Both the position numbers and the translations under genes were made by a program. From Candidatus Binatia bacterium (GTDB lineage: Bacteria > Desulfobacterota > Binatia > UBA9968), in NCBI GenBank assembly GCA_036506735.1, contig DASXRG010000136.1:17654-81653 (forward strand): 64,000 nucleotides of DNA, given 5' to 3'. The notes beneath the pieces were generated by a model. The model was given only the letters and a program-made list of their open reading frames with translations. It did not search any database and had not been told where the DNA came from. The stretch's first letter is position 1; every line of letters starts with the position of its first letter. This document shows, one piece after another, positions 27,993-62,370 of this stretch.

Positions 27993-28011
27993 GTGAACCT
28001 CCTTCGTTCCC

Positions 28012-28887: not shown

Positions 28888-28893
28888 CGCTTC

Positions 28894-38300: not shown

Positions 38301-39263
38301 TTATAACCTCCCCAACTCTTTTAGGACTTCCTCAGCGATTGAAGTGTCCGCCACCTGTTCCAAAGCGACGGTCTTCGGCAATCCCGCCTTTCTTTCTATC
38401 TCCAAGAGGTTCTCCACTCCGGCGGTATCGACGCGGCCGTCCCGGCTGAAAGCGTTGACCACGACTTCGTAGGACTCGCGCGCCATCGCCTCGTCCATCG
38501 CGAAGCGCTTGCGAATCACTTCGGTAGAACTCGCCCGCTCTTCGCGCAGGTGCCTCAACGCCTCCACCTCGGACTTCAAAACCCTTTTCACCTGCGAGCG
38601 GTTCTGCTTGATTTTTTCGACGGTCGCGGAGAGCCCCGCCAACGGGATCGAGACGACATCGGCGGTATTCGCCAGCAGAGGGAAACCCTCGCGCTTCATT
38701 AAAATCGAAAACGGCGGCGCGACCAGAATTGCGTCCACGCGCTTTGCCTTGAAGGCCTCGACGACGAACTTCTCCTCGCCGATCGCGAGAAACTTGACGT
38801 CACGATCGGGATCGAGGCCGAAGTGCTGCAGCAGCAGCCGGCCGCTGATCTGGTTGGTGCCGCCGAGACTGGTGACGCCGACTACGCGCCCTTTCAGCTC
38901 TTTGACGCTTTTGATCGATGGATAGACGATGAGACTGAAAAACGGCGCCTTGATGCTGGTCGAAAAGGCGCGCACCGGAGCGCCCCTGGCCGCCGAGCGG
39001 ATCGCCGAGCCGAAGACTTCCGCATAATCCGCGTCGCCGCTGACCAGCGCCGCGATGTTGACCGCCGGGCGCGCCTGCACCAGCTCGGCGCTCAAACCGT
39101 TCTTGGCGTAAAGGCCGCGATCTTTGGCGATGAAGGCGGCGAGAAACGAGAGCGAGTTGTTGGCGTAGGTGATGCGGATTTTTTCCTGCGCGTGGGCCGA
39201 ACAAACCGCGAGCAGAAGGACGAGGAGAAAACTCGCCGCATACCCAATCCCTTGTCGCTTCAT
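38301..39263 (-). CDS. NMT1/SsuA-like periplasmic SBP, orphan
   Basis: Signal peptide ASFLLVLLLAVCSAHAQE. SsuA-like core (LVSGDADYAEVFGSA; LKGRVVGVTSLGGTNQ). Confidence 0.75.
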   Translation of the reverse strand: MKRQGIGYAASFLLVLLLAVCSAHAQEKIRITYANNSLSFLAAFIAKDRGLYAKNGLSAELVQARPAVNIAALVSGDADYAEVFGSAIRSAARGAPVRAFSTSIKAPFFSLIVYPSIKSVKELKGRVVGVTSLGGTNQISGRLLLQHFGLDPDRDVKFLAIGEEKFVVEAFKAKRVDAILVAPPFSILMKREGFPLLANTADVVSIPLAGLSATVEKIKQNRSQVKRVLKSEVEALRHLREERASSTEVIRKRFAMDEAMARESYEVVVNAFSRDGRVDTAGVENLLEIERKAGLPKTVALEQVADTSIAEEVLKELGRL

Positions 39264-39303: not shown

Positions 39304-40290
39304 CTATTTTTTTCCGTACAGGCGATCGATATAACCGCTCTTTTTGATCTCCTCCATGAGACTCGTATCGATGAAATCCTTGGCCTGAGGATTGCGGTCC
39401 TTCGAGGTCAAAATCGAATCCAACGCCGCCTGGATGCCCTTCAACTCGGGTATCGGATACTCGCGCAGACTGCCCGCAAGCCTGGCGTAAACTTCTTTGG
39501 CGGCTTGTGGATCGTCGACACCCTCCTGTTTCATAGCCGCGAGCGGCACCTCCGGCCGGGTTTTGAAGACGTGGATTCCGTCGATGTAGGACTCCAGTAG
39601 TTTTCGCAAGGTCTCCCGCCGCGTTTGGAGAACGGATACGGGAGCGACGATGCCGAAGCGCGCATAATCCAACGGCAGCTCTGAAAGATCCGCCAGCACT
39701 CGGCAACACTTCGTGGCCAGCACCTTGTAAACTTGCTCGGGACTCACCAGCGCCCCCTCGACGTGGCCGCCGACCAGCGCGGTGATTCGCGTCGGCGTAT
39801 TGCCCGACTGCAGAATCGTCACGTCCTTCTCGGGATTGAGCTTCAAGAAGCGCAGCGCCAGTCTCGTCGTTACGTCGGAGGCCGAGCCGAACCGGCTGAT
39901 CGCGATGCGCTTGCCTTTGAGATCATCCGCCGTCTTGACGTTGCTGCGCACGACGAGATAGTGCTCCAGCCGGTTGATCGTGACCGCGATCACTCTTACA
40001 TCCAGGATGCCGGCTACCTTTGGACTGAGCTGTGCGGGCACATCGGAATCGGTGACAATAACGTCCCCCGCTATCATCGCCTGCGACATGATGCTGCCGC
40101 TGTTGAAATAGATGGGCTTCACATCCAGGCCGCGCTTCTGCCAGAGTCTCTCCCGCTCGATCACGAGGCGCAGTGTGCCGCTCACGCCGGTGCCGCTGTA
40201 GCCCATATTGATCGTCTCAGCTCGAATCGTCTGCGGGGAAAATACCGCCGCTGACACCATCGCCAAAACCAACGCAACGCGTCGCATCAA
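39304..40290 (-). CDS. NMT1/SsuA-like periplasmic SBP, orphan
   Basis: Signal peptide VALVLAMVSAAVFSPQTIRAE. Core motifs (MIAGDVIVTDSD; LKGKRIAISRFGSASD). Confidence 0.75.
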   Translation of the reverse strand: MMRRVALVLAMVSAAVFSPQTIRAETINMGYSGTGVSGTLRLVIERERLWQKRGLDVKPIYFNSGSIMSQAMIAGDVIVTDSDVPAQLSPKVAGILDVRVIAVTINRLEHYLVVRSNVKTADDLKGKRIAISRFGSASDVTTRLALRFLKLNPEKDVTILQSGNTPTRITALVGGHVEGALVSPEQVYKVLATKCCRVLADLSELPLDYARFGIVAPVSVLQTRRETLRKLLESYIDGIHVFKTRPEVPLAAMKQEGVDDPQAAKEVYARLAGSLREYPIPELKGIQAALDSILTSKDRNPQAKDFIDTSLMEEIKKSGYIDRLYGKK

Positions 40291-42116: not shown

Positions 42117-44303
42117 ATGGCCAACACGGTTGCGGCGGGCGGACTCAAAATAGACGAACAGTTGTTTCGCCTCGTGCGGGACGAGATCGCGCCGGGCACG
42201 GGCGTGGACGCCGATGATTTTTGGCGCTCGTTCGGCGCGATCGTGCGCGACCTGGGTCCGAAAAACCGCGCGCTGTTGGAAAAACGGGACGAGCTGCAAA
42301 AACAAATCGACGAGTGGCATCTTGCCCGCAAAGACCGGCCGTTCGATCTCAAAGAGTATAAGTCGTTTCTCAAAGAGATCGGCTATCTCGTCCCTGAGGG
42401 AAAAGATTTTCAGGCGGCAACCGCCGGCGTCGATCCGGAAATCACCGAGATCGCCGGCGCGCAATTGGTCGTGCCGCTCGATAACGCGCGCTACGCGCTC
42501 AACGCCGCCAATGCGCGCTGGGGAAGTTTGTACGACGCGCTTTACGGCACCAACGTGATTCCAGAAGACGGCGGCGCCGAGAAGGGCGAGAGCTACAACC
42601 CGCGGCGCGGCGCCAAAGTCATCGCCTACACCGAGGAGTTCTTGGACAAAGTGATCGGTCTCGAGCGCGGAAGCTTTTCGGACGCGGCGCGATTTTCTCT
42701 GAAAGACGCCGGCGGCAAGAAACAACTCGCGGCGACGATGAAGAACGGCGCGACGGCGGGACTCGCGGACCCGGGCAAATTTGCCGGCTATGTGGAAAAA
42801 GCGGGCGAGTTGACGAGTATTCTGCTGCGCAACAACAACTCGCACATCGAGATTCAGATCGATCGCAGCCACCCGATCGGCAAAACCCACGCGGCGGGCG
42901 TGAAGGACGTGGTCCTGGAATCGGCGATCACGACGATCGAAGACTGCGAGGACGCCGTGGCGGCCGTCGATGCCGCCGACAAGGTGACGGTCTATCGCCA
43001 CTGGTGCGGCATCATGAAAGGCACGCTCGAAGCGAGGTTCGAAAAAAACGGCCGGCCGCTCAACCGCGCGCTGAATCCGGATCGTATTTTCACGACGCCG
43101 GCCGGCGGGAAGCTCACCTTGCCGGGAAGAAGCTTGCTGCTCGTGCGCAACGTCGGCATCCACATGTACACCGACGCCGTGACGACGGAGGACGGCAGGG
43201 AGGTTCCCGAGGGATTTCTCGACGCGATGGTGACGGTGCTGGCGGCGCTACACGACCTCAAAGGAAAAAACCGAGGCGCCAACAGCCGCGCGGGGAGCAT
43301 TTACATCGTCAAGCCTAAACAGCACGGCCCGGAAGAAGTCGCCGCGACCGTCGAACTCTTCGAGCGGGTGGAAGACGCGCTCGGCTTGAAGCGCAACACT
43401 CTCAAGATCGGCATCATGGATGAAGAGCGGCGCACGACGGTGAACTTGAAGGAATGCATCCGCGCGGCCCGCGAGCGCGTGGTTTTCATCAACACCGGAT
43501 TTTTGGATCGCACCGGCGACGAAATTCATACGAGCATGGAATTGGGCGCGATGCTGCCGAAGGAAGAGATCAAAGCACAGCCGTGGATCAAGGCCTACGA
43601 AGATTGGAACGTGGACATCGGCATCGAGACCGGACTGCCGGGCAAAGCGCAGATCGGCAAGGGCATGTGGACGGCGCCCGACGAGATGCGCGAGATGGTG
43701 CAGACCAAGATCGCCCATCCCCAGGCCGGCGCGAACACCGCCTGGGTGCCGTCGCCGACCGCGGCGACCCTGCATGCGCTGCACTATCATTATGTCAATG
43801 TCGCCAAGCGCCAGGCGGAGCTGGCGAAAAGGGGCCGCGCGAGTCTGGATAACATTCTCACACCACCGTTGTTAGACCGGAAATTGAAGCCGGAGGAGAT
43901 CCAGCGCGATCTCGACAACAACGCGCAAGGGATCCTCGGCTACGTCGTGCGCTGGGTCGATCAGGGCATCGGCTGCTCCAAAGTGCCCAACATCCACGAC
44001 GTCGCGCTGATGGAAGACCGTGCGACGCTGAGAATCTCGAGCCAGCACATCGCCAACTGGCTACACCACGGAATTGTCACGAAGGAGCAGGTCATCGAGA
44101 CGCTGAAACGCATGGCGAAAGTCGTCGATCGGCAAAACGCCGGCGACCGCAACTACCGCAACATGGCGCCCGATTATGATAAGAGCATCGCGTTTCAGGC
44201 GGCGCTCGATTTGGTTTTCAAAGGCCGCGCAGCCCCGAACGGCTACACCGAGCCGGTGCTTCACGCCCGGCGTAGGGAAGTGAAGGCGGTGAAGCGAACG
44301 TGA
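42117..44303 (+). CDS. glcB: Malate synthase G
   Basis: 728 aa. Full-length match to malate synthase G hallmarks (MANTV...[26 protein letters not shown]...; catalytic ...[16 protein letters not shown]...; ...[16 protein letters not shown]...). Confidence 0.9.
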
Positions 44304-44368
44304 TTACTTTATTCGGGTAAATACCGGATACAAGTTTAAGCCGGCTTGGCGGATAATCGGTAGATGCC

Positions 44369-44737
44369 ATGGCCAGCCGGACCCAATGGACGATCGCGAT
44401 CCGTTGCCATCTATGCCATGGAAAATTCGCTCTGCGCCATCTGGAACTGGATAGCGTTTTCATCTCTCCGCTGACCACTTTCTGCCCGCATTGTCATACC
44501 CAGCTGCACGTCACGTCGGGACCGAACAACGCCCGGTACGCTTACTTGCAACGGGTCGACCTCAGAGAAGAAACAGAATCGATCTACAGAAAAACCAGCG
44601 GCAGCTACGTTTGGCACTTTTCCGAGGATTGTTCTCGCTGGCCCACAGACGCCTACGTGCAGATGGAAATCCAGCCTGACGTCGGCGAGATCTGCGGCGA
44701 GTGCAAAACCAAACAACGAAGAATGAGGGTTCACTAA
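44369..44737 (+). CDS. Small Cys/His-rich (zinc-ribbon-like) hypothetical protein
   Basis: 122 aa with CHLCHG...CPHCH and C-terminal CGECKTK, i.e. two CxxC pairs at each end. Confidence 0.45.
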   Translation: MASRTQWTIAIRCHLCHGKFALRHLELDSVFISPLTTFCPHCHTQLHVTSGPNNARYAYLQRVDLREETESIYRKTSGSYVWHFSEDCSRWPTDAYVQMEIQPDVGEICGECKTKQRRMRVH

Positions 44738-44749
44738 CTCCGCGGCTGC

Positions 44750-45265
44750 TCAGGACCTTGTCCCAAGAACATCCTTGGTCAATAACACCGCCACCGGCCG
44801 GTTCGAGTCTTCCGCCAAGATCCAGGCGTTCTTGAAAGTCCAATCGATGTCTTCCACGCTGCGCAGGACGTAGTGCCGGACGCCTAAAGCATCCAAGACG
44901 GGTATCGTCGCGGTTCCGACTCTGGCGAAGCCCCGATCGCCGATATCGCCCGCGTAATAAATAACCAGAAGCATCGGCAGCTCGAGTTGTATCCCCGTCG
45001 TCACGATGCCGTTGCAGCTGTTGAGCAGCCCCGCATTCTGCATGAGCATCGCCGGCTTTTTTCCGACCAAGCGGGCGCCGGCGCAAATCCCTATTCCCTC
45101 TTCCTCACGGCACAGAGGGACGTGGATGATCTCTGCGTCGCGCTCGAGGGCGTCGATGAGATCGAGGCAGTTGATATCCGGAAGGCTCGCAACGAGATTG
45201 ACCCCGGCTTTTTTCGCGCCGTCCAGGATCGCCCGAGCCCTGGCTTTTGCGTCCATCTCAGTCAC
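44750..45265 (-). CDS. Sulfopyruvate/phosphonopyruvate decarboxylase alpha subunit-like (TPP_enzyme_N, ComD-like)
   Basis: 171 aa. ...IHVPLCREEEGIGICAGARLVGKKPAMLMQNAGLLNSCNGIVT... is a ThDP pyrimidine-binding domain. 4-nt overlap with the upstream SBP gene. Confidence 0.7.
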   Translation of the reverse strand: MTEMDAKARARAILDGAKKAGVNLVASLPDINCLDLIDALERDAEIIHVPLCREEEGIGICAGARLVGKKPAMLMQNAGLLNSCNGIVTTGIQLELPMLLVIYYAGDIGDRGFARVGTATIPVLDALGVRHYVLRSVEDIDWTFKNAWILAEDSNRPVAVLLTKDVLGTRS

Positions 45266-46290
45266 TGGTAAAGCCGCGCGATCCAGCCGCTCTTGTCGAG
45301 TTCTTCCACGAAGCTGGTGTCGACAAAAGCCGCCGGATCGGCGCCCCTCGCTTCGGGCATCGACGACTCGGCAAAAGAGTCGAGAATCGCCTTGACCCCG
45401 TTTTGCGTCGGGTACGGTGCCCTGGACAGATAGCGCAGCGCGTACACGCGATACGTCTCCTCCAAAACCTCGGGATTCTGCGTCTTCGTGTATTTCTGAA
45501 TAATTTTGAGTGAGAACGTCTTGTCGATCTTAAAGCGATGGATCGCCTCGGTGAGGGAACGAATAAATTGGCCGACCGTTTCCTTGCGCTCGCGAATGAA
45601 GCGCCGCGTGGTTCCGTAGCAGGTGCTGGCGTACTCGATGCCCGTCGAGCCGGCGTCCATGAATTCCCGGAAGCCGAGCGTCTGCGCGGTGATGTTCGAA
45701 GGTGGAGAGAAGACGCCGCCGTCGAGCAGCCCCGACTTCATGCTCGCCAATATTTCCGGATAGCCGCCCATCGGGCGAACGACAACGTCCCGGCTCGGGT
45801 CGAGACCGGATCGTCTTAGTAGAGTGCGCAAAGTAAAATCCGAAAGGCTCCCCAGCGTGGTGACACCGAATCTTTTTCCCTTGAGGTCTTTCGGCTCCTT
45901 CATGTCCGCAAGTGTCATCAGCGAGAAGACCAAAGTGTTGTAAGTGGTCGCAATCAGCACGGCGTCCTTGGCCCCATTGAGATTCGCGGCGACCAGGGCG
46001 TTTCCTCCCGTGCCGATTACCTGCAACTGGTTTGAAAGAAGGGCCGCCATCGAACGCGGGCCGCCGGTAAGATAGACGAGATCTACGTCGAGCCCGTGCT
46101 TGCGGAAGATTCCGGTTTCCTTCGCGATCCACAAAACCGCCTGGGCCCCGCTGATCGAAGGATAACTGATCGTCAAATGATTGAGCTTGCCCTCCTGGGC
46201 AAACCCGAAAGCGCGCGCCAAAACGACCGCCGCCAAGACCAGTCCGCACGACGTGACTTTCCTCAAAGATTCACTCAACCTTTCTTCCAA
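45262..46290 (-). CDS. NMT1/SsuA-like periplasmic SBP embedded between decarboxylase subunit genes
   Basis: Signal peptide VTSCGLVLAAVVLARAFGFAQE. SsuA-like core (LLSNQLQVIGTGGNA; LKGKRFGVTTLGSLSD). Overlaps the comE-like stop by 16 nt. Confidence 0.75.
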   Translation of the reverse strand: MEERLSESLRKVTSCGLVLAAVVLARAFGFAQEGKLNHLTISYPSISGAQAVLWIAKETGIFRKHGLDVDLVYLTGGPRSMAALLSNQLQVIGTGGNALVAANLNGAKDAVLIATTYNTLVFSLMTLADMKEPKDLKGKRFGVTTLGSLSDFTLRTLLRRSGLDPSRDVVVRPMGGYPEILASMKSGLLDGGVFSPPSNITAQTLGFREFMDAGSTGIEYASTCYGTTRRFIRERKETVGQFIRSLTEAIHRFKIDKTFSLKIIQKYTKTQNPEVLEETYRVYALRYLSRAPYPTQNGVKAILDSFAESSMPEARGADPAAFVDTSFVEELDKSGWIARLYQ

Positions 46291-46904
46291 CTCCCGGGAA
46301 TGCGCGCCTGGAGGATCGGAATGCCTTCGGTCTGTTCGATGTGGCGAGTGAAACGATATTTGTTTTCAACGTCAGGCCAGGGCCACGGCGGCACCTCTCC
46401 CCGCCCCGGCGCTACTTTGGCGCAGATGAAGGTGTGTTCCCAGCGCGCCAACGCGTCGCTGAAGAGCTTTTTGAATTCATCCACGGAAGCGGCGCCAAAT
46501 GCGTTCTTGATGCCGACGCCCCTCGCCACGGCGACAAAATCGACGCCCTCCGCGGTTGCGGTCTTCGTTCCGCCCGAAGATTCATAGACACCGTTGTCGA
46601 ACACAACATGGATCAAGTTTTTCGGGTTCTTTCGCATGATCGTCGGCAGACCGCACAAGTTCATCAAAAGCGAGCCGTCGCCGTCGAGCGCGATCACTCT
46701 CCGCTGAGGCAAACCGAGAGCCATTCCCAAAGCGATCGAAGAGGTGAGCCCGAGAGTCCAACAGCGCAGGTTCCCATCGCTCGGACGATAGGCGTTCCAC
46801 TCGGACGACGTGCCACCGACGCAGACCACCACGAGCGCGTCGCCGACCGATCCGGCGATTTCTTTAAGACACTCGTGCCGTTTCACCAGGGTGACCCATA
46901 CCAA
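46275..46904 (-). CDS. Sulfopyruvate/phosphonopyruvate decarboxylase beta subunit-like (TPP_enzyme_C, ComE-like)
   Basis: ThDP-binding motif GDGSLLMNLCGLPTI...VVFDNGVYESSGG (GDG-x24-NN). Confidence 0.75.
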   Translation of the reverse strand: MVWVTLVKRHECLKEIAGSVGDALVVVCVGGTSSEWNAYRPSDGNLRCWTLGLTSSIALGMALGLPQRRVIALDGDGSLLMNLCGLPTIMRKNPKNLIHVVFDNGVYESSGGTKTATAEGVDFVAVARGVGIKNAFGAASVDEFKKLFSDALARWEHTFICAKVAPGRGEVPPWPWPDVENKYRFTRHIEQTEGIPILQARIPGSWKKG

Positions 46905-47014
46905 CGTTCCGACTACGCGTCAAGTTTCAGTCTCAAACGATCGTCGTTCTTGAAGCCGTGGAGCTTATTTTATAAGAAGGGTACGGAACGAGACGATCGC
47001 AGGAAGGATCGGCG

Positions 47015-47170
47015 ATGGACGTACGAGCCGCAGCCGCATTCGCGCCGGGGAAGCCTCTTAAAGTCGAAACCGTACAACTCGACGGGCCGAAAGAAGGCGA
47101 GGTCCTGGTCGAGATCAAGGCGACCGGAGTGTGCCACACGGACGAGTTCACGCGCTCGGGCGCTGATTCG
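47015..47170 (+). pseudogene. 5' fragment (first ~50 codons) of a class III alcohol dehydrogenase (frmA) paralog, with duplicated upstream promoter/RBS region from ~46919
   Basis: [49 protein letters not shown] matches the N-terminus of the intact gene at 51965. Upstream ~100 bp also align (gcgtcaag...cgttcttg...acgatcgcag.aagga). Homology ends abruptly after 47160. Confidence 0.6.
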
Positions 47171-47534
47171 GAGAGAAGAGCCGATGGGCGCCGCCGCGGT
47201 CGTAGGTGATGCTGCGAACTTCCTTGCGGTTGGCCCGCAGGCGCTGGTCGATTTGTTGGAAGCTGGTGAGAACGCCGGATTGGTCGCTCGCCTCGACCAG
47301 AAGCAGGACCGGCGCTTTAATCGAGTCCAGCCGCTCGGTCAACTCTTGCACCTCTCGTCCCACGGGGGCGAGGAGACCGAGCGCTTTCAAATCGTTCCGC
47401 CCCAGCGCAACCGACAACGATAACGCCCCTCCGCGAGAAAAGCCTACGAGCGCGATTCGCGACGCGTCGATGTCCGCCAGCGTCTTGACGTGATCGATCG
47501 AGCGGGCGATCTGCTGTTTGTGACGCGGCTGCAT
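47148..47534 (-). pseudogene. Dienelactone-hydrolase family gene, N-terminally truncated fragment
   Basis: ORF starts MQPRHKQ, but DLH homology (EDGYNLKAIREAFAADGFFVFAPIRKGGPE...IALVGFSRGG...) continues in-frame upstream to an in-frame stop. The ~40 N-terminal residues are missing. Confidence 0.45.
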
Positions 47535-47633
47535 TTCCGGCCCGCCTTTGCGAATCGGGGCGAAGACGAAGAAACCATCGGCAGCGAAGGCCTCACGGAT
47601 GGCTTTGAGGTTGTAGCCATCCTCCGCCGCTCC

Positions 47634-48326
47634 TCAACTTCCCGCCTTGATGAAAACGACGCTGCGCCCGTCCGGCGATAATCCAGGCTGGACGCAGCTT
47701 ACGCCGTCACACGCGCTGATGTTCTGCGGCGCGGCGTTGCCGCGTCGAAGGTAAACCTCGGTCCATTCTATATTGCGCGAGAGACCGCGCTTGGTTTCGG
47801 TCTTGGTATAAACGACCGTGTCGCCGTACACCCGTTCCTGGCCGCGGATTTGCGCCAGCATGCGGCGCTGCTCGTCCGACTTGGCGTCATACGGCAACGG
47901 CGTAACTCCGCCGCTCTTCAGCGACACCACCGCCAGCGGCGCGCCTTTGGCGCCGTTCTCCATTAGCAGCACGGCCTCGTCCGGACTCTTGCCGTCGAAT
48001 CCTACCAGCTTGAGCGCGCCCGGGACTTTTTGCACGCCCACGGCTTTGCCGCCTTCGGAAGGAATCCGAACGATCGTGTCGCCCTTGAGGGCGTAGACGG
48101 CTCGATCCGCCGGCGAGAAGACGGGCGCGCGGTAACCGCCGTCGGTCGTCAACGCTCTTACCGTCCCCCGGTCCAGGCTCGCGATCCAGACGTTTCCCGT
48201 GTCGATCTCATCGCCCGGTCCGCGCATCTGCCCGGGCGCCGCGGTCAGCCCCGAAACCCGCAGCAGGCGGTTGACGAGCGATTCCGTGGCGGCGCCGACA
48301 GGAACCGCCAGCGCCAGCAATAGCAT
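47634..48326 (-). CDS. Secreted hypothetical protein (possible beta-propeller/TolB-like fold)
   Basis: Start set at MLLLALAVPVGAATE (signal peptide); the longer upstream ORF overlaps the neighbouring gene. Repeated ...VYALKGDTIVRIP / VVSLKSGGVTPLP strands. Confidence 0.5.
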   Translation of the reverse strand: MLLLALAVPVGAATESLVNRLLRVSGLTAAPGQMRGPGDEIDTGNVWIASLDRGTVRALTTDGGYRAPVFSPADRAVYALKGDTIVRIPSEGGKAVGVQKVPGALKLVGFDGKSPDEAVLLMENGAKGAPLAVVSLKSGGVTPLPYDAKSDEQRRMLAQIRGQERVYGDTVVYTKTETKRGLSRNIEWTEVYLRRGNAAPQNISACDGVSCVQPGLSPDGRSVVFIKAGS

Positions 48327-48352
48327 CACGCGCGCCAACCGCCGTGGACCGA

Positions 48353-49231
48353 TCACCGCTTCTCTCCGGTCAGAAAAAGTTTCGGCACCATACGGTCGAA
48401 GCCGAGAATCTCCGTGCGCTCGATTTTGCCGCGCGGCACCGTGAGCAGCTCCCGGCGCGGCGCTTCCGGACGCCGAATCAGAAACGTCGCGCCGTCCTTC
48501 CCTTCCCACACGAGCCATGCCTCCTCGCCGTCGGCCAGCACCTTGTCTCCGATCGCCGCGACCCGCGGCAGCGTTTTGTCGGCGATGAGAACTCCGTAAT
48601 TGATCGGCAACAGCAGGATCTGCACCGCCGCGAGAAACGCGAGCAACGCTCTGGCGAACGCCGCCCGCGCGCCCAGCGGTTCATCGCGGAGCGCCGCCAG
48701 GATCGCCAGGGAAACCGCGCAGGCCGCGACGAGCCCGCTAAAATAGAGCGGCATGAGCGCATCGTCGAGCAGCAGCCTGACGAGCCAGGCGGGCTGCGGC
48801 GGCAAGGCGGGAGCCAGCAGCAGATCGGTGAAGAAGAAGCATTGCCGCATGACGAACTGAATCATAATCACGGCGAAAACCACGCCGAAAACCGCGAGCC
48901 GCTCCGGCTGTACCATCCAGACCGTAGCTTTGGCGCGAGCCGTCTCCGGCACAAGCCTGCCCGCCGACCACGCCAGCGCCGCCAGCGGCAGCGCGACGAG
49001 CACAACGGCCGGCACGGCGGAGACGAGGTAAACGAGAAAACGCGCCCCGGTGAAGAGATATCGCTCATCGAGAACGGCGAGGTCCGTGCCGATGCCGATC
49101 GCGGTCAGATGAAATCTGAGCGCGAGATAACCGAGCACGTATAACAGGAAGCTGCCGACGACCGTGTACCTCGTCCAGTCGCTTCCCAGCGCCTTGACGC
49201 GCTCGCCCAGTTCCTGCAGCAGGTTCGCCAC
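48353..49231 (-). CDS. Polytopic membrane protein with C-terminal soluble domain, hypothetical
   Basis: At least six predicted TM helices (FLLYVLGYLALRF..., FLVYLVSAVPAVVLVALPLAALAW..., FGVVFAVIMIQFVM...), then a ~60-aa hydrophilic tail. GTG start 3 nt after the CHAT gene stop. Confidence 0.55.
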   Translation of the reverse strand: MANLLQELGERVKALGSDWTRYTVVGSFLLYVLGYLALRFHLTAIGIGTDLAVLDERYLFTGARFLVYLVSAVPAVVLVALPLAALAWSAGRLVPETARAKATVWMVQPERLAVFGVVFAVIMIQFVMRQCFFFTDLLLAPALPPQPAWLVRLLLDDALMPLYFSGLVAACAVSLAILAALRDEPLGARAAFARALLAFLAAVQILLLPINYGVLIADKTLPRVAAIGDKVLADGEEAWLVWEGKDGATFLIRRPEAPRRELLTVPRGKIERTEILGFDRMVPKLFLTGEKR

Positions 49232-49234
49232 TTT

Positions 49235-51766
49235 TTATCGCCCGATCATCGTGAACGCCGCCCAGTAGTACGGATGGCCGTACGCCGGATTGCTTTTCAC
49301 TTTTATGAGCGCCGCGCGCGCCGCCTCCTGCGGCGGCCGGTTGAGCGCGGCTTCGTAAAAGCTTTGCATCCACAGCGCGGTCGCCGCCGAGTCCACCTTC
49401 CAGTGCGACACGACCAGGGTTCCCGCGCCCGCGTAAATCAGCGCGCGCACGATGCCGAGGACTTCGTTCGCGTGCGTCGCCTCGGCGCGTCCGGTTTCGC
49501 ACGCGGAAAGCACGACCAGCCGACTTTTTTCGAGCGGCAGGCCGAACATCTCCGCCGCGGTCAGCTTGCCGTCGTCGCCGGCGCCGCCAGCGAGCGACAG
49601 GTAGGAGAGCATCGGCTCGGCGCCGTCGAATTTGCCGTGCACGGAGAGATGAATCACGTCGAAATCGCGCACCCAGGATTTAACATCGCCTTCGCGCGCG
49701 AGCTCATCGACGACGACCTTGTTGCGCCCGGGAAAAAGTTTCGCGATCGCCTGCACCTCGGGAACCGCCGCGTCGATGCTCGGATCCGCGACCGCGAGCA
49801 GCCTGCCGCCCGATAACCCCGGCGGCCGCCTGAGGCCGAGCAGCACGGAGGCGCTCGGGGCGTAGGTGATCTGAAAACGCTCGCCGAGGTAACGCCCGTC
49901 CGCCGGATCCTGGAAAACCTGAAATGGAACGTAATGCAGGTCTTCGTGCGGGATAATGACCAGCCGCTCGCTGCGAATGCGCGCGAGGACCGGCTGGATG
50001 AGGAAAAGGAACAGCTCGCGCGCGGTCGTTTCATCGAAACGCGCGTTCCGGTCGGCGAGACTTTTTTGCAGCGCGGCGACCTTGCCGATCATCTCGCTCC
50101 GCGGCAGAAAAACGCTGCGCACGAATACCGAGTCGGGCGCGATGTGCCAGACGATGATGCTGTGCTCGAGGACAAGGTATTCGAGCACCTCATAACCTTC
50201 CTCGCGCATCGATTGCTGCAAGGCCTTGAGACTCGCCGGCGCCGAAGTGACGAGGTTCTGCAGCCGCGGCGACTCGACGGCCATGCGCGCGACGACTTTT
50301 TGGTGCTGCGCCTCGAGCGTCCGTATCTGATCCTGGAGCGCGCTCATCTGCGGCGCGTTCTTCGCCGCGTCGCGCTGGCTCGCGATTTCGAAGAGCCGGC
50401 TCTGCGCGTCGGCGATCCGGGTTCGGAGCACCGTCGATTCCGCGTAGAGCTTTTGTTCCTCGGGCCGTTCGAGCCCGAGCTTGCGGCTGGCGAGCAGATC
50501 GGCGAGCGCCCGGGAGCGCGAACGCTCGAACAGCTCGAAGGCCTCGGCGTAACGGCGGCGCTCGAGCAACTGCTGGATCGGCGCGTAGTAGAAATTGATC
50601 CGGTCCTCGAGAAAAGTGCCCCGGCTGCGCTCGTCGCGCAGCGCCCGGCGGTCGCTTTCGAGCGTCTCGACCGCTTTCAAGAAATCCGCCAGTGCCGCGT
50701 CGTTGTTGCCGCGCAGCTCGTTCATCATGCCTTCGGTGAAATGGGTCCGCGCCTGAACGACGTCGGCAAAGCCGCCCGCCTGCTGCTCCATGCGCTTGGA
50801 AGCCTGGTAGATCTCGTTGAGCATCGGCGGAATTTCTCCGGGCGGCGGGACAAATTTTTCCGTCACCAGAACGTCGGCGGCCTTCTTCGGATGGAACACG
50901 CCGGTCTTTTGCACGGTCTGGTGCATGCGTTCCTGGGACTGGATCAGGCCGCGGCTCGCTTCGACGTTGCCGATCAGGCCCTCGGTCTGGCGCGCGAGCC
51001 CGGAGTAGCCGAGCTTGCGGACGATCGCGAGCCCCTGCTCGAGGTCGGCGCGCGCGCGGTCGAGCGCCTGATAGCACGGCTCGAACGAGCGCTGGAAATC
51101 GCATTTTCCGCCGGTTTTGAAATACACGTCCGACCGGTTCAAGTAGGCAAAATACGAAGCCATCGGATCTTTCGCCTGTGCGGCGACCGTGACCTCGCGG
51201 TTGAGAGTATCCGACGCGCCGGCGAGGTTGCCCTGCGCGATCTGGACGGTGCCGAGCACGTCCAGCGCGCGCGCCAGCACGTCCTTGTCGCTGATGCCTT
51301 CCGCAAGCCGCACGGCTTGCGTCGCATCGGCGAAGGCCTGGCCGACGTTTCGCCGCGAAGATTCGGCGAGCGCCTTCCACGCGAGCGCGTCCGCCTGATG
51401 CGCCACGTTTCGAGCGCGCTTGGCGGCCTCTTCGGCCTGCTGGTATAACGCGATGGCATTCGGCCACTGGCTTTGCATCCGATAAATGTGGCCCTGTTTG
51501 GTCAAGCCGAGCGCGAGCGCCGGCCAGTCGCCGCGGGCGGCGAGCATTTGGTTGCTGGCGCCGAGCTCCGCGTCCGCCTGCGCGAGGTCGGAGAGCCGCG
51601 AGCGCGGGTCGCCGGTTTTGCGAAACTGGTCGACAAATCCGTCGATGCGCTCGATCGCGCGCTTCTGCAAGGCGATCGGATCGCTTTGGGCGCGGGCAGA
51701 TTGCGCCGGCAGGAGCAGACACAAAAACAGCGCCGTAAATACGAAAGTGAAATCGCGTCGATCCAT
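49235..51766 (-). CDS. Secreted TPR-CHAT protein (caspase-like His/Cys protease domain)
   Basis: Signal peptide MDRRDFTFVFTALFLCLLLPAQSARAQS with GGGAG RBS. N-terminal helical TPR-like repeats. C-terminal CHAT domain with His (DVIHLSVHGKFD) and Cys (LVVLSACETG) dyad. Confidence 0.8.
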   Translation of the reverse strand: MDRRDFTFVFTALFLCLLLPAQSARAQSDPIALQKRAIERIDGFVDQFRKTGDPRSRLSDLAQADAELGASNQMLAARGDWPALALGLTKQGHIYRMQSQWPNAIALYQQAEEAAKRARNVAHQADALAWKALAESSRRNVGQAFADATQAVRLAEGISDKDVLARALDVLGTVQIAQGNLAGASDTLNREVTVAAQAKDPMASYFAYLNRSDVYFKTGGKCDFQRSFEPCYQALDRARADLEQGLAIVRKLGYSGLARQTEGLIGNVEASRGLIQSQERMHQTVQKTGVFHPKKAADVLVTEKFVPPPGEIPPMLNEIYQASKRMEQQAGGFADVVQARTHFTEGMMNELRGNNDAALADFLKAVETLESDRRALRDERSRGTFLEDRINFYYAPIQQLLERRRYAEAFELFERSRSRALADLLASRKLGLERPEEQKLYAESTVLRTRIADAQSRLFEIASQRDAAKNAPQMSALQDQIRTLEAQHQKVVARMAVESPRLQNLVTSAPASLKALQQSMREEGYEVLEYLVLEHSIIVWHIAPDSVFVRSVFLPRSEMIGKVAALQKSLADRNARFDETTARELFLFLIQPVLARIRSERLVIIPHEDLHYVPFQVFQDPADGRYLGERFQITYAPSASVLLGLRRPPGLSGGRLLAVADPSIDAAVPEVQAIAKLFPGRNKVVVDELAREGDVKSWVRDFDVIHLSVHGKFDGAEPMLSYLSLAGGAGDDGKLTAAEMFGLPLEKSRLVVLSACETGRAEATHANEVLGIVRALIYAGAGTLVVSHWKVDSAATALWMQSFYEAALNRPPQEAARAALIKVKSNPAYGHPYYWAAFTMIGR

Positions 51767-51964
51767 AAGCGCTCCCGGCCGGGTGGCACTGAAAATCAAA
51801 CGTTAATCGCCGCGGCTGCCTCGCCGAAGTAGTGTGACGTAAATTAAGTCAATTGAGGCGAAGCGTCAAGCGAGAACGGCCACACACGCCGACAAAAGCG
51901 CGTTCTTGCGGGCTAGGGTCGTATCTTGTAAGAACAGCTACACGATCGCAGAAAGGAGTTAACG

Positions 51965-53074
51965 ATGGACGTACGAGCGGCGGTGGCGTTCGCGCCGGGC
52001 CAACCACTCAAGACTGAAACCGTAAAACTGGAAGGTCCGAAAGACGGCGAAGTCCTGATCGAGATCAAGGCGACCGGAGTCTGCCACACGGATGAGTTCA
52101 CGCGCTCGGGCGGCGATCCGGAGGGACTCTTCCCGGTAATTTTCGGCCACGAGGGCGCGGGCATCGTCGTGGATGTCGGACGCGGCGTGACTTCAGTTGC
52201 GAAGGACGATCATGTCATCCCGCTCTACATCCCTGAGTGCCGCAACTGCAAGGCGTGCCTGTCGGGCAAAACGAATCTCTGCACCGCGATCCGTGCGACC
52301 CAGGGCAAAGGCGTGATGCCGGACGGGACCAGCCGGTTTTCGCTCGGCGGCGAGAAGCTGCACCACTACATGGGCTGCTCGACGTTCGCCAACTACACGG
52401 TGCTGCCGGAGATCGCCGTCGCGAAAATTCGCAAAGACGCGCCGTTCGACAAAGTCTGCTACATCGGCTGCGGCGTGACGACCGGAATCGGCGCGGTGCT
52501 CAACACCGCGAAAGTCGAGCCCGGCGCGAGCGTGGTCGTGTTCGGCTTGGGCGGCATCGGCCTCAACGTCGTGCAAGGCGCGCGCATGGCCGGCGCGAAC
52601 CGGACCATCGGCGTCGATATCAATCCGAAGCGCGAAACGCTGGCGCGGAAATTCGGCATGACGGACTTCGTCAACCCGAAAGAAGTCGCAGGCGATCTCG
52701 TCGCACACCTCACGGACCTCACCGACGGCGGCGCCGACTACAGCTTCGAGTGCATCGGCAACGTGGACGTGATGCGCCAGGCGTTGGAGTGCTGCCACCG
52801 GGGCTGGGGCGTGTCGACGATCATCGGCGTCGCCGGCGCGGGACATGAGATCAGGACGCGCCCGTTTCAGCTCGTCACCGGCCGCGTCTGGAAAGGCACC
52901 GCCTTCGGCGGCGCCAGAGGCCGCACCGACGTGCCGAAATTCGTCGATTGGTACATGGAAAAGAAGATCAACATCGACGACCTCATCACCCACACGATGC
53001 CGCTGGAAAAAATCAACGACGCGTTCGATCTGATGCACTCAGGAGAGTCGATCAGAAGTGTGGTGATCTATTAG
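51965..53074 (+). CDS. frmA: S-(hydroxymethyl)glutathione dehydrogenase / class III alcohol dehydrogenase
   Basis: 369 aa. Catalytic Zn (GVCHTD, GHEGAG), structural Zn Cys cluster ([15 protein letters not shown]), NAD Rossmann motif GLGGIGL. AAAGGAG RBS. Confidence 0.9.
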
Positions 53075-53132: not shown

Positions 53133-53921
53133 TCACGCCTTCTTGATGCCGCGGACGGCGCGCGCCCTGCCATTCAGTTTAAACGGTCGATCAGGACCAG
53201 CGCCGATAACTCTTTCACGCACCCGCGCGCGCACAGCTTCCTGCTGTTCGGCAGGCAAACTGACGAAGTAAGACCCGCCCGATCCCTGGCCGCCATAGAA
53301 CGGCGCCCAGAAATCGTCGAACGACTTAAACTCGGGCGATATGACCAGTGGCTTTTCTTCGACGTCGGTAAATCCAACTTCGTGCCACAAAGCTGAAAGT
53401 TGGTCCTTGACGTAAAGCCGCTCATCCCGCGTCTGTTTGCCGGCGGGATCGATTTCCGCCGCGCTGTCCCAAAACACCGAATGGAGCTCATTCTCGTCCC
53501 GGTCCCAAACGGCCGCCGCTACGATTCCTCCCCGCCGGGCGACCCGGCTCATTTCGCATAGTGCGCCGCGAGCGTCCGGAATCAACTGAATGACGAGGAG
53601 AGCGAGGCATTTGTCGAACGAGCCGTCGGGATAAGGCAGGCTCAGAGCATTGCCGATGTCGAAGGTGACGCGCGGATCGCTCGCGCGGGAGCGGGCATAT
53701 TCAATGAAAGCCTCCGATCGGTCGATGCCGACGATCTCGCTTCGAGCCCGCCGGGCTGCGGCGGTGAAAGCGAGCCCTCCCGTCCCGCAGCCGACGTCGA
53801 GCAGCCGTTCGCCGTCTTTGATGCCGACAAAATCGATAAACGGCCCGGCCAATAGCTGGCTGTAACGGCCGGTGCGCTGATTGTAGGCTTCAGCGTTGGA
53901 AAACCCGCCGGGTTTGCTCAT
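53133..53921 (-). CDS. Class I SAM-dependent methyltransferase (Methyltransf_11/25-like)
   Basis: Motif I LLDVGCGTGGLAF; post-I acidic residue. Paralog of 53928-54710. Confidence 0.75.
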   Translation of the reverse strand: MSKPGGFSNAEAYNQRTGRYSQLLAGPFIDFVGIKDGERLLDVGCGTGGLAFTAAARRARSEIVGIDRSEAFIEYARSRASDPRVTFDIGNALSLPYPDGSFDKCLALLVIQLIPDARGALCEMSRVARRGGIVAAAVWDRDENELHSVFWDSAAEIDPAGKQTRDERLYVKDQLSALWHEVGFTDVEEKPLVISPEFKSFDDFWAPFYGGQGSGGSYFVSLPAEQQEAVRARVRERVIGAGPDRPFKLNGRARAVRGIKKA

Positions 53922-53927
53922 AACTCG

Positions 53928-54710
53928 TTATCTAACGCCGCGGACAGCCCAGGCTTTCGCTCGCAGTTTGAACGCTCGGTCGGGGCCGGCGCCGAACACT
54001 TTCTCGCGCACGCGATTACGCAAGGTTAGCTGTTTGTCGACAGATAGACTGGCCAAGTAAGAACCGGCCGGACCTTGGCCTTCGACCAACGGCTTCCAGT
54101 ACTCGTCAAACGATTTAAATTCAGGCCAAAGGAGCAATGCCGTTTCATCAATGCCGGTAAACCCGCCTTCGACCCATAAGCCTGCGAGTTGACCCGCGAC
54201 GTAACCCCGGGTCTCCCGCATCTTTCCAGCCTCCGGGCTGATTTCAGCCGCGCTATTCCAGAAGAAAGTGTGAAAGTCATCCTCGTCCCGGTCCCAAACG
54301 CATGCCGCTACAGTTCCCCCCTGCCGGGTCACCCGTCGCATCTCGGATACCGCTCTCCGGACATCTGGAATGAACTGGACGACGAGCAAAGATAGGGATT
54401 TGTCGAAGGAACCGTCAGTATAAGGAAGGCTCAGAGCGTCGCCGACCTCGAACCTTAAGCGCGGCTCGCTCGTCTGCGCGCGGTCGTATTCGATAAAGGA
54501 TTCTGATCGATCGATTCCAACAATCTCGCTTCGAGGATTCAGGGCTGCGGCGACAAACGCAAGCGAGCCTGTGCCACAGCCGACATCGAGCAGGCGCTCG
54601 CCGTCTTTGACGCCGGCAAAATCGATAAATTGTGGCGCCAACAGCCGGCTGATACGGCCGGTGTGGCGATTGTATGCTTCCGCGTTGGAAAACCTGCCGG
54701 TCAATTTCAT
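53928..54710 (-). CDS. Class I SAM-dependent methyltransferase, paralog
   Basis: MKLTGRFSNAEAYNRHTGRISRLLAPQFIDFAGVKDGERLLDVGCGTGSLAF is co-linear with 53133-53921. Start set at the internal ATG matching the paralog N-terminus. Confidence 0.75.
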   Translation of the reverse strand: MKLTGRFSNAEAYNRHTGRISRLLAPQFIDFAGVKDGERLLDVGCGTGSLAFVAAALNPRSEIVGIDRSESFIEYDRAQTSEPRLRFEVGDALSLPYTDGSFDKSLSLLVVQFIPDVRRAVSEMRRVTRQGGTVAACVWDRDEDDFHTFFWNSAAEISPEAGKMRETRGYVAGQLAGLWVEGGFTGIDETALLLWPEFKSFDEYWKPLVEGQGPAGSYLASLSVDKQLTLRNRVREKVFGAGPDRAFKLRAKAWAVRGVR

Positions 54711-54717
54711 GAGTGAT

Positions 54718-55461
54718 TTACGTCTTTTTCTTGCTGAGCCTGAACGGGATGATCTTCGGCACCTGCTGCTGATATTGCCTGTAGGCGTCGCCGAAGAAAC
54801 TGACCAGATCTTTCTCCTCGTATTTAATCGCGCGCAGAATATATCCAGTGGTGACGATGGCAAATAGCAAGTGGCCAACGGTCATCGTCGGCGTCGACCA
54901 GAAGGCAAAAAACCAGCCGAGATAAAGCGGGTGGCGCACGTATTTATAAAGACCGGGCGTCTTGAAGGTCACCGGCGTGGGCTGTTTCCCTATGAGGTGA
55001 AGAAAAACCTGGCGCAAGCCGAAGAGATCGAAGTGGTTGATCAAAAATGTGCTCGTCAGGACAAGGAGCCAGCCGAGCGCAAAGAGCGCCCATAAGATAA
55101 AGCGCCCTGCCGGATTCTCCACGTTCCAAATGACGCCGGTCATCGGCCGCCACTGCCAGAAGAGAAGGATCAGCAGCAGGCTGGAGAGCAGGACATAAGT
55201 GCTGCGCTCCGCCGGCTCGGGGATGATCTTCGTCCAAGCGCGCTTGAATCCCTGACGCGCCATCACGCTGTGCTGAATCGCGAAGAGTCCCAGCAGCGCG
55301 ACGTTGATCACCAGCGCCTGGCCGCGCGGGCCTAGCACGCCGCCGTCGATACCTTTTGGAACGAGAAAATTACTCAGGAACCCGATTGCGTAAAGAAAAG
55401 TTCCCAGGAATATAAGGTAGCAGACCACACCGTAGATAAAGATAAAAACACGCCCCACCAT
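54718..55461 (-). CDS. Membrane methyltransferase of the ICMT/PEMT (isoprenylcysteine carboxyl / phospholipid methyltransferase, MddA-like) family
   Basis: Four or five TM helices and C-terminal RHPLYLG...EEKDLVSFFGDAYRQY motif. GGAGG RBS before ATG 55461. Confidence 0.7.
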   Translation of the reverse strand: MVGRVFIFIYGVVCYLIFLGTFLYAIGFLSNFLVPKGIDGGVLGPRGQALVINVALLGLFAIQHSVMARQGFKRAWTKIIPEPAERSTYVLLSSLLLILLFWQWRPMTGVIWNVENPAGRFILWALFALGWLLVLTSTFLINHFDLFGLRQVFLHLIGKQPTPVTFKTPGLYKYVRHPLYLGWFFAFWSTPTMTVGHLLFAIVTTGYILRAIKYEEKDLVSFFGDAYRQYQQQVPKIIPFRLSKKKT

Positions 55462-55675: not shown

Positions 55676-55852
55676 CGCAGCCGCGAGCGTGTAGGTAAGC
55701 GATCCGGTGCCGCAGCCGACATCGAGCAGGCGCTCGCCGTCCGCGATTCCCACGAAGTCGACGAAGCGCCGCGCGAAGAGCCGGCTCCACCGTCCCATGT
55801 AGCGCTCGTAACCCTCGGCGTTGGAAAAATTAACTGTCGGATTCGTCGTCAT
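55676..55852 (-). pseudogene. N-terminal fragment (~58 aa) of a third methyltransferase paralog
   Basis: MTTNPTVNFSNAEGYERYMGRWSRLFARRFVDFVGIADGERLLDVGCGTGSL matches the paralog N-termini through motif I. It then diverges into unrelated sequence and no frame restores homology. Confidence 0.55.
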
Positions 55853-61359: not shown

Positions 61360-62370
61360 TTACCTTTTATCCCCCCAGAGCTTGGCGAAGAAATCGCTTT
61401 TATCCAGCTCGATTAAATATCTGCGATCGATCAAGTCCGCCGGCTTGGCGAGTTTCGCCCGCGGGTCCGTCGGGGCGATCTCGTCGAGCGAAGCCTGCAG
61501 CGCCGATGGTTGGATTTCCAAACGGCGCTCGAGGGCGGGAATCTCCGATTGATAAGCGGCGTCGAGAATCTTCGTGTCGGTGACGCGCATATATTTCCCC
61601 AGGACTTTGTAGACGAGGTTTTTGTCGGTGTGCAAAATTTTCGCCGCCTCGGCCATCGCCCGCATGAACCTTCCGATGACCGGACCGCGCTGAGCGATCA
61701 CCGAGCGGAGCGTGACGAACGTAGTGGCGGCATAAGGAATGCGAAGCTCCAGACCGTTGACGATCAGACGGTATCCCTGCGACGCCGCGCCCGCGTCGCC
61801 CGGCGCAACCAGCGAGGCCGCATCGACACGGCCGGCGACGAGCGCCGCCAGCGACTCCGGCCCCCCGCCTGTCGGCACCGCCTGAACATCCTTGCCGGCG
61901 TCGAGACCGAATTTTCTCAGCGCCTGGATGGTGAAATAGTGGGTATTGCTGCCGAACCGCCCTATCCCGATCCTTCGTCCTTTCAGCTCCTCGGGCCGTT
62001 TGATCTCCGCCTTGCCCATAATGTTGTGCGTCAGGATGTTTTTTACGGCGCCGATGAAGACCAAATCGGTGCTGCCTTGAACGTAAGCGCGCACGTTGCC
62101 GATCGCGCCCGTGACGGCGATCTCCCCGTCGCCGCCCAACATGGCGGCGGTTGCGACCGGCGACGACGAGATGAAAACCAGGCGAAAATCCAGATCGTAT
62201 TTTTTAAACAGTCCCGCATCCTGGGCGATCCACGGCATCGATTGCGACAAGACTTGCGCCGAGTGAAGGCCGACCAGCTTGTCGGCCGCGCAAACTCCGC
62301 CGTAAGGCAACAACGAGCCCAGCACGACGAACGCCGACCAACGAAAATATCTGTGAAAATGTTTGAACAT
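61360..62370 (-). CDS. NMT1/SsuA-like periplasmic SBP, orphan
   Basis: Signal peptide FRWSAFVVLGSLLPYGGVCAADK. SsuA-like core (AMLGGDGEIAVTGAIGN; LKGRRIGIGRFGSNTH). Confidence 0.75.
   Translation of the reverse strand: MFKHFHRYFRWSAFVVLGSLLPYGGVCAADKLVGLHSAQVLSQSMPWIAQDAGLFKKYDLDFRLVFISSSPVATAAMLGGDGEIAVTGAIGNVRAYVQGSTDLVFIGAVKNILTHNIMGKAEIKRPEELKGRRIGIGRFGSNTHYFTIQALRKFGLDAGKDVQAVPTGGGPESLAALVAGRVDAASLVAPGDAGAASQGYRLIVNGLELRIPYAATTFVTLRSVIAQRGPVIGRFMRAMAEAAKILHTDKNLVYKVLGKYMRVTDTKILDAAYQSEIPALERRLEIQPSALQASLDEIAPTDPRAKLAKPADLIDRRYLIELDKSDFFAKLWGDKR

Follow-up and report, generated by a model that had tools for sequence, protein, structure and literature searches.

A solute-binding protein gene between the two subunit genes of a split thiamine diphosphate-dependent enzyme in a conserved operon of uncultured soil bacteria

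Here we analyse a stretch of 64,000 nucleotides from a Candidatus Binatia bacterium (assembly GCA_036506735.1, contig DASXRG010000136.1, positions 17,654 to 81,653), hereafter the window, in which three adjacent minus-strand genes encode, in this order, the diphosphate-binding (PP) half of a split thiamine diphosphate (ThDP)-dependent enzyme (beta), an exported solute-binding protein (SBP) of the NitT/TauT family, and the pyrimidine-binding (PYR) half of such an enzyme (alpha). This beta-SBP-alpha operon is a conserved layout in a group of uncultured soil bacteria and not a one-off insertion. Our results support a model in which the three genes are likely to make up a self-contained module for the uptake and decarboxylation of an organic acid, and there is no evidence pointing specifically to sulfopyruvate or phosphonopyruvate as the substrate.

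Results

The beta-SBP-alpha arrangement recurs far beyond chance. Our survey, which took one genome per species together with metagenome contigs, gave more than 100 loci, and the order beta-SBP(-alpha) was present in all 19 whose beta is at least 77% identical to that of the window (L001-L004, L013, L016-L024, L101, L102 and L104-L106); 13 of these are complete, three are more divergent (L104-L106), and three end at contig ends after beta-SBP. The arrangement was retained even though the window and six orthologous loci have diverged to saturation at synonymous sites (dS at least 1). The flanks of the 19 loci vary, and include a class III alcohol dehydrogenase (ADH) and malate synthase G, PAS histidine kinases, or an arylmalonate-decarboxylase-like gene, indicating that the three genes move as a unit. 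All three genes are under purifying selection, with ratios of nonsynonymous to synonymous substitution (dN/dS) in comparisons of the window with the six loci of 0.035-0.051 (beta), 0.091-0.109 (SBP) and 0.025-0.070 (alpha). Because of these low ratios and the saturated synonymous sites, the SBP gene is neither a pseudogene nor a recent insertion in the window genome. The original prediction, made from the window sequence alone, had considered a gene insertion event in this genome, which is at odds with an operon conserved across the whole clade. Its statement that the two subunit genes are normally adjacent in alpha-beta order agrees with 62 surveyed loci that have more distant betas (at most 64% identity) and this order. 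It had also foreseen that homologous loci might reveal a standard conserved operon of known function; the conserved operon that was found agrees with half of this expectation.

The link between this SBP and the split enzyme is older than the beta-SBP-alpha order, because the same SBP orthologue group, which comprises more than 100 clusters at 71-90% identity, is also found in other orders, namely at 64-68% identity as SBP-alpha-beta in L097 and L098 and as alpha-beta-SBP-alpha-beta in L096. Every member of the group examined at 63% identity or more adjoins split ThDP genes, in three gene orders altogether, and none was found away from ThDP genes in the loci examined. Within the clade, the SBP-alpha junction is always at most 10 nt or overlapping. 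This recurrent pairing makes a functional link between SBP and enzyme plausible and suggests uptake plus decarboxylation of an imported carboxylic acid. It also renders it unlikely that the SBP is a mere passenger that became fixed between the subunit genes and is functionally unrelated to the enzyme: a passenger would hardly have stayed beside split ThDP genes in three orders and with unrelated flanks while synonymous sites diverged to saturation, nor would a tight SBP-alpha junction be expected of it, even though the window is rich in SBP paralogues, most alpha-beta loci (clade B, 40% identity group) lack an adjacent SBP, and a sister SBP group (46-51% identity) is attached to another enzyme, where it always follows hydantoinase A/B genes (L099, L100, L103 and P0236 contigs). 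Other split-ThDP subfamilies are flanked by orphan SBP genes as well, either NMT1-like (L058, L059, L061, L062, L064 and L065) or TctC-like (L108, L068, L062, L059 and L053). Separately, the P0132 contig (ENA ERZ27297570) carries a 58-aa open reading frame (ORF) followed by SBP and alpha genes and lacks a full-length beta, for which either a truncation of beta or an error of assembly could be the reason.

The three minus-strand ORFs were confirmed at 46275-46904, 45262-46290 and 44750-45265, and ORF coordinates and Pfam domains agree with the subunit assignment and the beta-SBP-alpha order originally proposed. The proposal that the genes overlap at both junctions survives as a possibility for one of them. 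Because homologues of beta have 203 residues and begin with MKRxEC, beta starts at GTG 46886 and not at TTG 46904. Starts of the SBP orthologues align with TTG 46266, which yields the signal peptide MRKVTSCGLVLAAVVLARAFGFA/QEGK, and with this start the SBP gene is separated by 8 nt from the beta stop at 46275. An overlap of 16 nt between beta and SBP is obtained only with the longest possible ORF and is an artefact of that choice. At the SBP-alpha junction, the 4-nt GTGA overlap is possible with alpha starting at GTG 45265, while the more widely conserved of the two candidate starts, ATG 45256, leaves a 5-nt gap. With these starts, the three genes are still spaced closely enough for coupled expression.

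A putative sigma-70-like promoter (Table 1) reaches to within 7-8 nt of the beta start codon, with no Shine-Dalgarno sequence in between. Its position and hexamer geometry are kept in L001-L004, L017, L102, L013, L019 and L024 despite diverged sequence; the generic promoter scan made no call there, so that the promoter assignment rests on this conservation. As the promoter abuts the start codon and no Shine-Dalgarno sequence is present, the transcript is probably a leaderless mRNA beginning at the beta start codon. At neither gene junction did the terminator scan call a terminator-like site, and the three minus-strand terminator-like sites inside the SBP ORF are within the expectation from shuffled sequence. 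The 3' end of beta, GGAAGAAAGG, provides a plausible ribosome-binding site for the SBP gene. A thiamine pyrophosphate riboswitch or another RNA element was considered and rejected, with no Rfam element found in 44000-48000. Upstream of the promoter, a palindrome (Table 1) may be a candidate regulator site, that is, an operator common to the divergent ADH and beta promoters.

Turning to the enzyme, the beta ORF contains the Pfam domain TPP_enzyme_C (PP; E = 1.6e-17) and the alpha ORF contains TPP_enzyme_N (PYR; E = 8.7e-8). The ThDP motif of beta, GDGS-X25-DN (GDGSLLMN...FDN), shows no variation across distant relatives, and the cofactor-activating catalytic Glu of alpha in HVPLCREEEGIG (REEEG) is the same in all distant relatives compared. 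As in ComDE-type enzymes, the PYR and PP domains thus reside on separate polypeptides and both the ThDP motif and the Glu are intact, and the adjacent comD-comE order (alpha then beta) is replaced by beta-SBP-alpha. The best curated (NCBIfam) models are sulfopy_beta for beta and sulfopyru_alph for alpha. The nearest solved structures are RhiF for beta (9IZ3_B; E = 1e-16, ~64 bits) and RhiE for alpha (9IZ3_A; E = 9e-14, ~55 bits), the subunits of RhiEF, a split phosphonopyruvate decarboxylase (PMC12141560). Pfam, NCBIfam and structure matches therefore support the original assignment of the two small genes to a split ThDP enzyme of the ComDE/Ppd superfamily, one coding for its PYR half and the other for its PP half.

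The accompanying name, sulfopyruvate/phosphonopyruvate decarboxylase, is not justified, because both subunits fall under every curated cutoff and no pathway genes were found among the scanned ORFs. For the sulfopyruvate decarboxylase pair (TIGR03845/TIGR03846), beta scores 128.2 against an equivalog cutoff of 221.5 and alpha 119.5 against 147.95; for phosphonopyruvate decarboxylase (TIGR03297, cutoff 312.5), beta scores 117.1 and alpha 57.1. The domain scan covered ~27 ORFs, namely those around the operon, those in the 25.8-32.2 kb stretch and two other SBP paralogues, and left most of the window outside; within it, we found no sulfoacetaldehyde acetyltransferase (Xsc), sulfolactate dehydrogenase or sulfite handling, no sulfonate pathway context (comABC, xsc/pta/suyAB), and no phosphoenolpyruvate (PEP) mutase domain or phosphonate cluster. 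We therefore consider it improbable that the operon encodes a genuine sulfopyruvate/phosphonopyruvate decarboxylase with a sulfonate/phosphonate-type SBP, by which a C3 sulfonate (sulfolactate, cysteate) would be imported and converted to sulfopyruvate and then to sulfoacetaldehyde. The best-scoring models for the subunits and, for the SBP, SsuA_fam (TIGR01728) would speak for such a pathway, as would the name 'sulfopyruvate decarboxylase subunit beta' that the Joint Genome Institute gives to some homologues and the structural proximity to RhiEF, but the SsuA_fam score (80.9) is likewise under its cutoff (163.5), HESTGGQRT of RhiF is YESSGGTKT in beta, and Xsc is excluded for the full-length ThDP neighbour in L014 (144.6 versus a cutoff of 676.4). 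Moreover, the closest relatives occur in a different setting: in the conserved clade B cluster (L029, L043 and ~15 more), penicillin-amidase and glutathione S-transferase genes lie divergent upstream of alpha, and alpha is followed by beta, an F420-type luciferase-like oxidoreductase (LLM) gene and a RidA/RutC-like gene, which is not a sulfonate or phosphonate context.

Judged by sequence, the enzyme would be filed under the split ThDP decarboxylase superfamily as neither ComDE nor Ppd. Its subfamily is large, with 2099 clusters at E of at most 0.001, and the metagenome-assembled genomes involved are labelled Binatia, Methylomirabilota, Deltaproteobacteria, Acidoferrales and Dehalococcoidia. 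Our literature search returned no paper on this split ThDP subfamily and none for PDB 9U8Q.

The SBP ORF (45262-46290) scores 64.9 with Pfam NMT1 and 62.3 with NMT1_2, above the gathering cutoffs of 20.5 and 24.7 (E = 1e-17), and the n-h-AxA/Q signal peptide is, judged by eye, kept in all orthologues. An AlphaFold2 model (mean confidence, pLDDT, 78) confirms the SBP fold at the level of prediction, with 3QSL as the top match (TM-score 0.76), followed by TauA and SsuA (both E ~1e-14), ThiY, a thiamin binder, PqqT, Thi5 and DszB, all only 12-20% identical. Pfam score, bilobed fold and signal peptide are those of a NitT/TauT-family SBP and, with pseudogenization ruled out by a dN/dS of ~0.1, the middle gene is the intact SBP gene with a signal peptide that had been predicted. 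The narrower family models do not apply, the TauA models giving 21-23 bits against cutoffs of 304-490. We also considered the structure as a guide to the ligand and rejected it; the model is adequate, but the nearest structures share only 18-20% identity with the SBP and bind chemically unrelated ligands.

No permease or ATPase gene adjoins the SBP gene, as would be seen in a NitT/TauT-family importer operon; the nearest BPD_transp_1 and ABC_tran genes lie ~16 kb away (28012-29694), as part of a complete NitT/TauT-type importer (SBP, permease, ATPase) at 26940-29694. At least ten other NMT1-like SBP paralogues are found in the 64-kb window (~1 per 6 kb; examples in Table 1), together with this one permease/ATPase pair. 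The window is thus an extreme expansion of orphan SBP genes, and many orphan SBPs sharing one translocator fits its gene content. It is very improbable that the SBP-like protein is a periplasmic enzyme or sensor with an SBP fold instead of a transport component. The presence of Thi5 and DszB, which are enzymes with an SBP fold, among the fold matches and the lack of an adjacent cognate permease or ATPase would speak for this reading; against it, genuine binding proteins rank highest among the matches (3QSL, TauA, SsuA, ThiY and PqqT), and a translocator shared by the orphan SBPs of the window is the simpler explanation.

The beta-SBP-alpha order appears to be derived and specific to one clade. 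Simple insertion of an SBP gene into an alpha-beta pair was rejected as its origin, because this predicts alpha-SBP-beta, unlike the observed beta-SBP-alpha. SBP-to-alpha is the only junction common to every arrangement with this SBP. We suggest that the order would have arisen by rearrangement among neighbouring or paralogous SBP, alpha and beta modules, for which tandem arrays, as found in L096 and L064, could be the substrate, either through rotation by duplication and loss or through fusion of neighbouring modules. Paralogous operons do recombine, because L108/L109 (L108:757-1871; order TctC-like SBP, alpha', beta, SBP) carry a chimeric beta. Over residues 1-100 this protein matches the L049/L053 type (82-90% identity) and over residues 101-203 the window type (74-87% identity), with the breakpoint at the conserved ThDP motif; alpha' (80% identical) and the upstream TctC-like gene are also of the L049/L053 type, and the downstream SBP is also of the window type. 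The chimeric beta marks L108/L109 as a secondary recombinant, and we rejected it as an ancestral intermediate.

Phylogenetic comparisons were made between the clade of the window (clade A), clade B and the SBP-alpha-beta operons (group C). Clade A alphas group with group C alphas in 313-327 of 500 neighbour-joining bootstraps, and four-point tests join the two in 549-960 of 1000 replicates depending on the outgroup. Among neighbour-joining trees of beta, clade A and group C were joined in 0 of 500; the four-point test with a far outgroup joins them (850/1000), and nearer outgroups favour A+B. With the grouping of beta dependent on the outgroup, the incongruence between the alpha and beta trees is not conclusive, and we rejected it as proof of a hybrid origin. 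For the SBP, clade A, L104 and group C are about equally far from one another (63-68% identity), while identities within A/L104 and to group C are 72-77% and 52-54% for beta and 73-75% and 62-67% for alpha. Beta and alpha are thus more diverged from group C than expected relative to the SBP, a pattern that hints at module shuffling.

Concerning the flanks, an intact class III ADH gene (51965-53074; TIGR02818, 624.8 against a cutoff of 543.95) is present in the window, and the intact ADH adjoins beta, in divergent orientation, in L001-L004, L017, L101 and L102. About 250 nt of the ADH 5' end and upstream sequence are duplicated in the window (~81% DNA identity), one copy being the remnant in Table 1, and the ~4.8 kb between the copies (47148-51964) hold a gene for a CHAT/TPR protein (49235-51799) and other ORFs. 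This duplication/insertion is a rearrangement private to the window genome, and the 4.8-kb insertion has broken the link of ADH to beta. Neither the class III ADH nor malate synthase G was accepted as a functional clue from the neighbourhood, because both are conserved only in the closest subclade, where synteny extends over the whole region.

Several further features were noted. A 294-aa ORF with no Pfam match, a TGA and an in-frame C-terminal fragment resembling dienelactone hydrolase (47148-47534) follow each other at 47148-48518 (minus strand), which is probably one disrupted hydrolase gene. On the plus strand, 44369-44737 encodes a Cys-rich 122-aa protein (CxxC...CxxC) without a Pfam or NCBIfam match. 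This ORF is conserved in L002-L004 (66-67% identity), where malate synthase G lies upstream of it; in the window it stops 12 nt from the convergent alpha stop, with no room for terminators. Finally, two tandem class I methyltransferase paralogues, 62% identical, are present with a third fragment at 53133-54878 and 55688-55837 (minus strand).

Table 1 Features of the window, in window coordinates.
Feature	Coordinates	Strand	Basis and remarks
Beta, PP (ThDP diphosphate-binding) domain, 203 aa, GTG start	46275..46886	-	Maximal ORF to 46904; homology
SBP, exported NMT1/SsuA-like (NitT/TauT family), 334 aa, TTG start	45262..46266	-	Maximal ORF to 46290; homology
Alpha, PYR (pyrimidine-binding) domain	44750..45265	-	171 aa (start GTG 45265) or 168 aa (start ATG 45256)
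Putative sigma-70-like promoter: TTGACG (46923-46918), 17-nt spacer, TATGGG (46900-46895)	46895..46923	-	Conservation
Palindrome CTTATAAAATAAG, ~40 nt upstream of the -35 hexamer	46964..46976	-	Partly conserved in L001-L004 and L017
Class III ADH remnant, 53 codons	47015..47173	+	tblastn; matches the intact ADH at its N-terminus with 83% identity
NMT1-like SBP paralogues, examples	1817-2695, 14127-14900, 16222-16881, 21405-22322, 26940-27992, 38301-39263, 39304-40290, 61375-62247		

Discussion

Altogether, we propose that the three genes, as one conserved operon and probably on one leaderless mRNA, would encode a heteromeric alpha/beta ThDP-dependent decarboxylase from an uncharacterised subfamily of the split ComDE/RhiEF/LumKL group together with its own orphan SBP. 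In this model of the module, the SBP would capture an extracellular organic acid, which would be the enzyme substrate or its immediate precursor, and would pass it to an ATP-binding cassette (ABC) permease/ATPase encoded elsewhere, for example the importer at 26940-29694. Decarboxylation by the cytoplasmic alpha/beta enzyme would then take place adjacent to a C=O or C=N centre. Of the coupled uptake and decarboxylation of a sulfonated or phosphonated 2-oxoacid that the original prediction had suggested, the coupling thus remains plausible, given the presence of this SBP group beside split ThDP genes in three orders and with unrelated flanks, while the sulfonated or phosphonated nature of the substrate does not hold.

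Several observations weigh against this proposal. With no permease or ATPase gene linked to the operon, we can only infer the coupling to transport. Adjacency alone means little, because the genome is crowded with NMT1-like SBP genes, and the closest alpha-beta relatives (clade B, ~60% identity) usually have no adjacent SBP. The nearest SBP structures bind sulfonates, the thiamine pyrimidine precursor FAMP, thiamin, pyrroloquinoline quinone, nitrate or bicarbonate, from which no substrate can be deduced. Lastly, that subunits encoded 1 kb apart form a heteromer is an assumption of the model.

The grouping of the alphas, the lack of such grouping of the betas in neighbour-joining trees, the excess divergence from group C and the L108 chimera are all hints that make it tempting to speculate further on how the uptake-plus-decarboxylation module originated and what it acts on. 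Here, the operon would be what is left of two neighbouring paralogous modules after their fusion, with beta and alpha from different ancestral pairs forming a natural hybrid heteromer, and would define a widespread route of soil bacteria for a non-sulfonate substrate delivered to the enzyme by a dedicated orphan SBP, candidates being aryl or N-heteroaromatic alpha-keto-like carboxylates as for LumKL. We consider this extended scenario doubtful as a whole.

Thousands of soil-metagenome proteins in this subfamily are automatically annotated as sulfopyruvate decarboxylase subunits, and because the label is unsupported, any conclusion on the sulfur cycle based on it would be mistaken. The conserved pairing with an orphan SBP offers a practical, SBP-guided route to the substrate of a large family of soil enzymes. 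Moreover, the three gene orders, the tandem arrays and the chimeric subunit gene, whose breakpoint lies at the ThDP motif, constitute a natural rearrangement series, which is useful for studying the tolerance of heteromeric enzymes to reordered genes and exchanged subunits. These findings do not overturn current understanding.

Among characterised systems, ComDE of Methanocaldococcus jannaschii, which functions in coenzyme M biosynthesis, resembles the enzyme described here in consisting of two polypeptides of ~170 and ~200 aa with PYR and PP domains and no middle domain, in its ThDP motif and catalytic Glu, and in providing the best-scoring curated models; it differs in that the window proteins are under both equivalog cutoffs, an SBP gene lies between beta and alpha, and the scanned ORFs gave no sign of a coenzyme M or sulfonate pathway. 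RhiEF (PDB 9IZ3/9IZ4) is likewise a heteromeric PYR plus PP enzyme and the closest solved structure for both subunits, but the matches reach only ~64/55 bits, HESTGGQ of RhiF is YESSGGT here, the Ppd model gives 117 against 312.5, and the scanned ORFs include no PEP mutase gene or phosphonate cluster. LumK/LumL of Nocardioides simplex is a split ThDP enzyme that decarboxylates a quinoxaline carboxylate in lumichrome catabolism (PMC12746152), and the split architecture is therefore not confined to sulfopyruvate and phosphonopyruvate. By description, not by sequence, it is comparable as a split, co-expressed 20 + 23 kDa ThDP enzyme of soil-bacterium catabolism, although LumKL is encoded in a 25-gene catabolic operon in contrast to the three-gene module with an SBP considered here.

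The ssuEADCB operon of Escherichia coli is a direct precedent for an SBP gene between the genes for two components of one enzyme system, because the gene for an SsuA-family SBP lies between those for the ssuE reductase and the ssuD monooxygenase, with both junctions overlapping. The ssu operon has its own permease and ATPase, whereas membrane transporter parts are absent here, and its enzyme is a two-component flavin monooxygenase, whereas the pair interrupted here represents the halves of a single active site. Modules of catabolic enzymes and orphan SBPs, such as HyuA-HyuB-SBP and the Bug/TctC modules, similarly combine an SBP with enzyme genes without membrane components, but place the SBP at the end of the operon and not inside the enzyme gene pair. 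Compared with known layouts, the operon of the window has a reversed subunit order and belongs to an uncharacterised enzyme subfamily.

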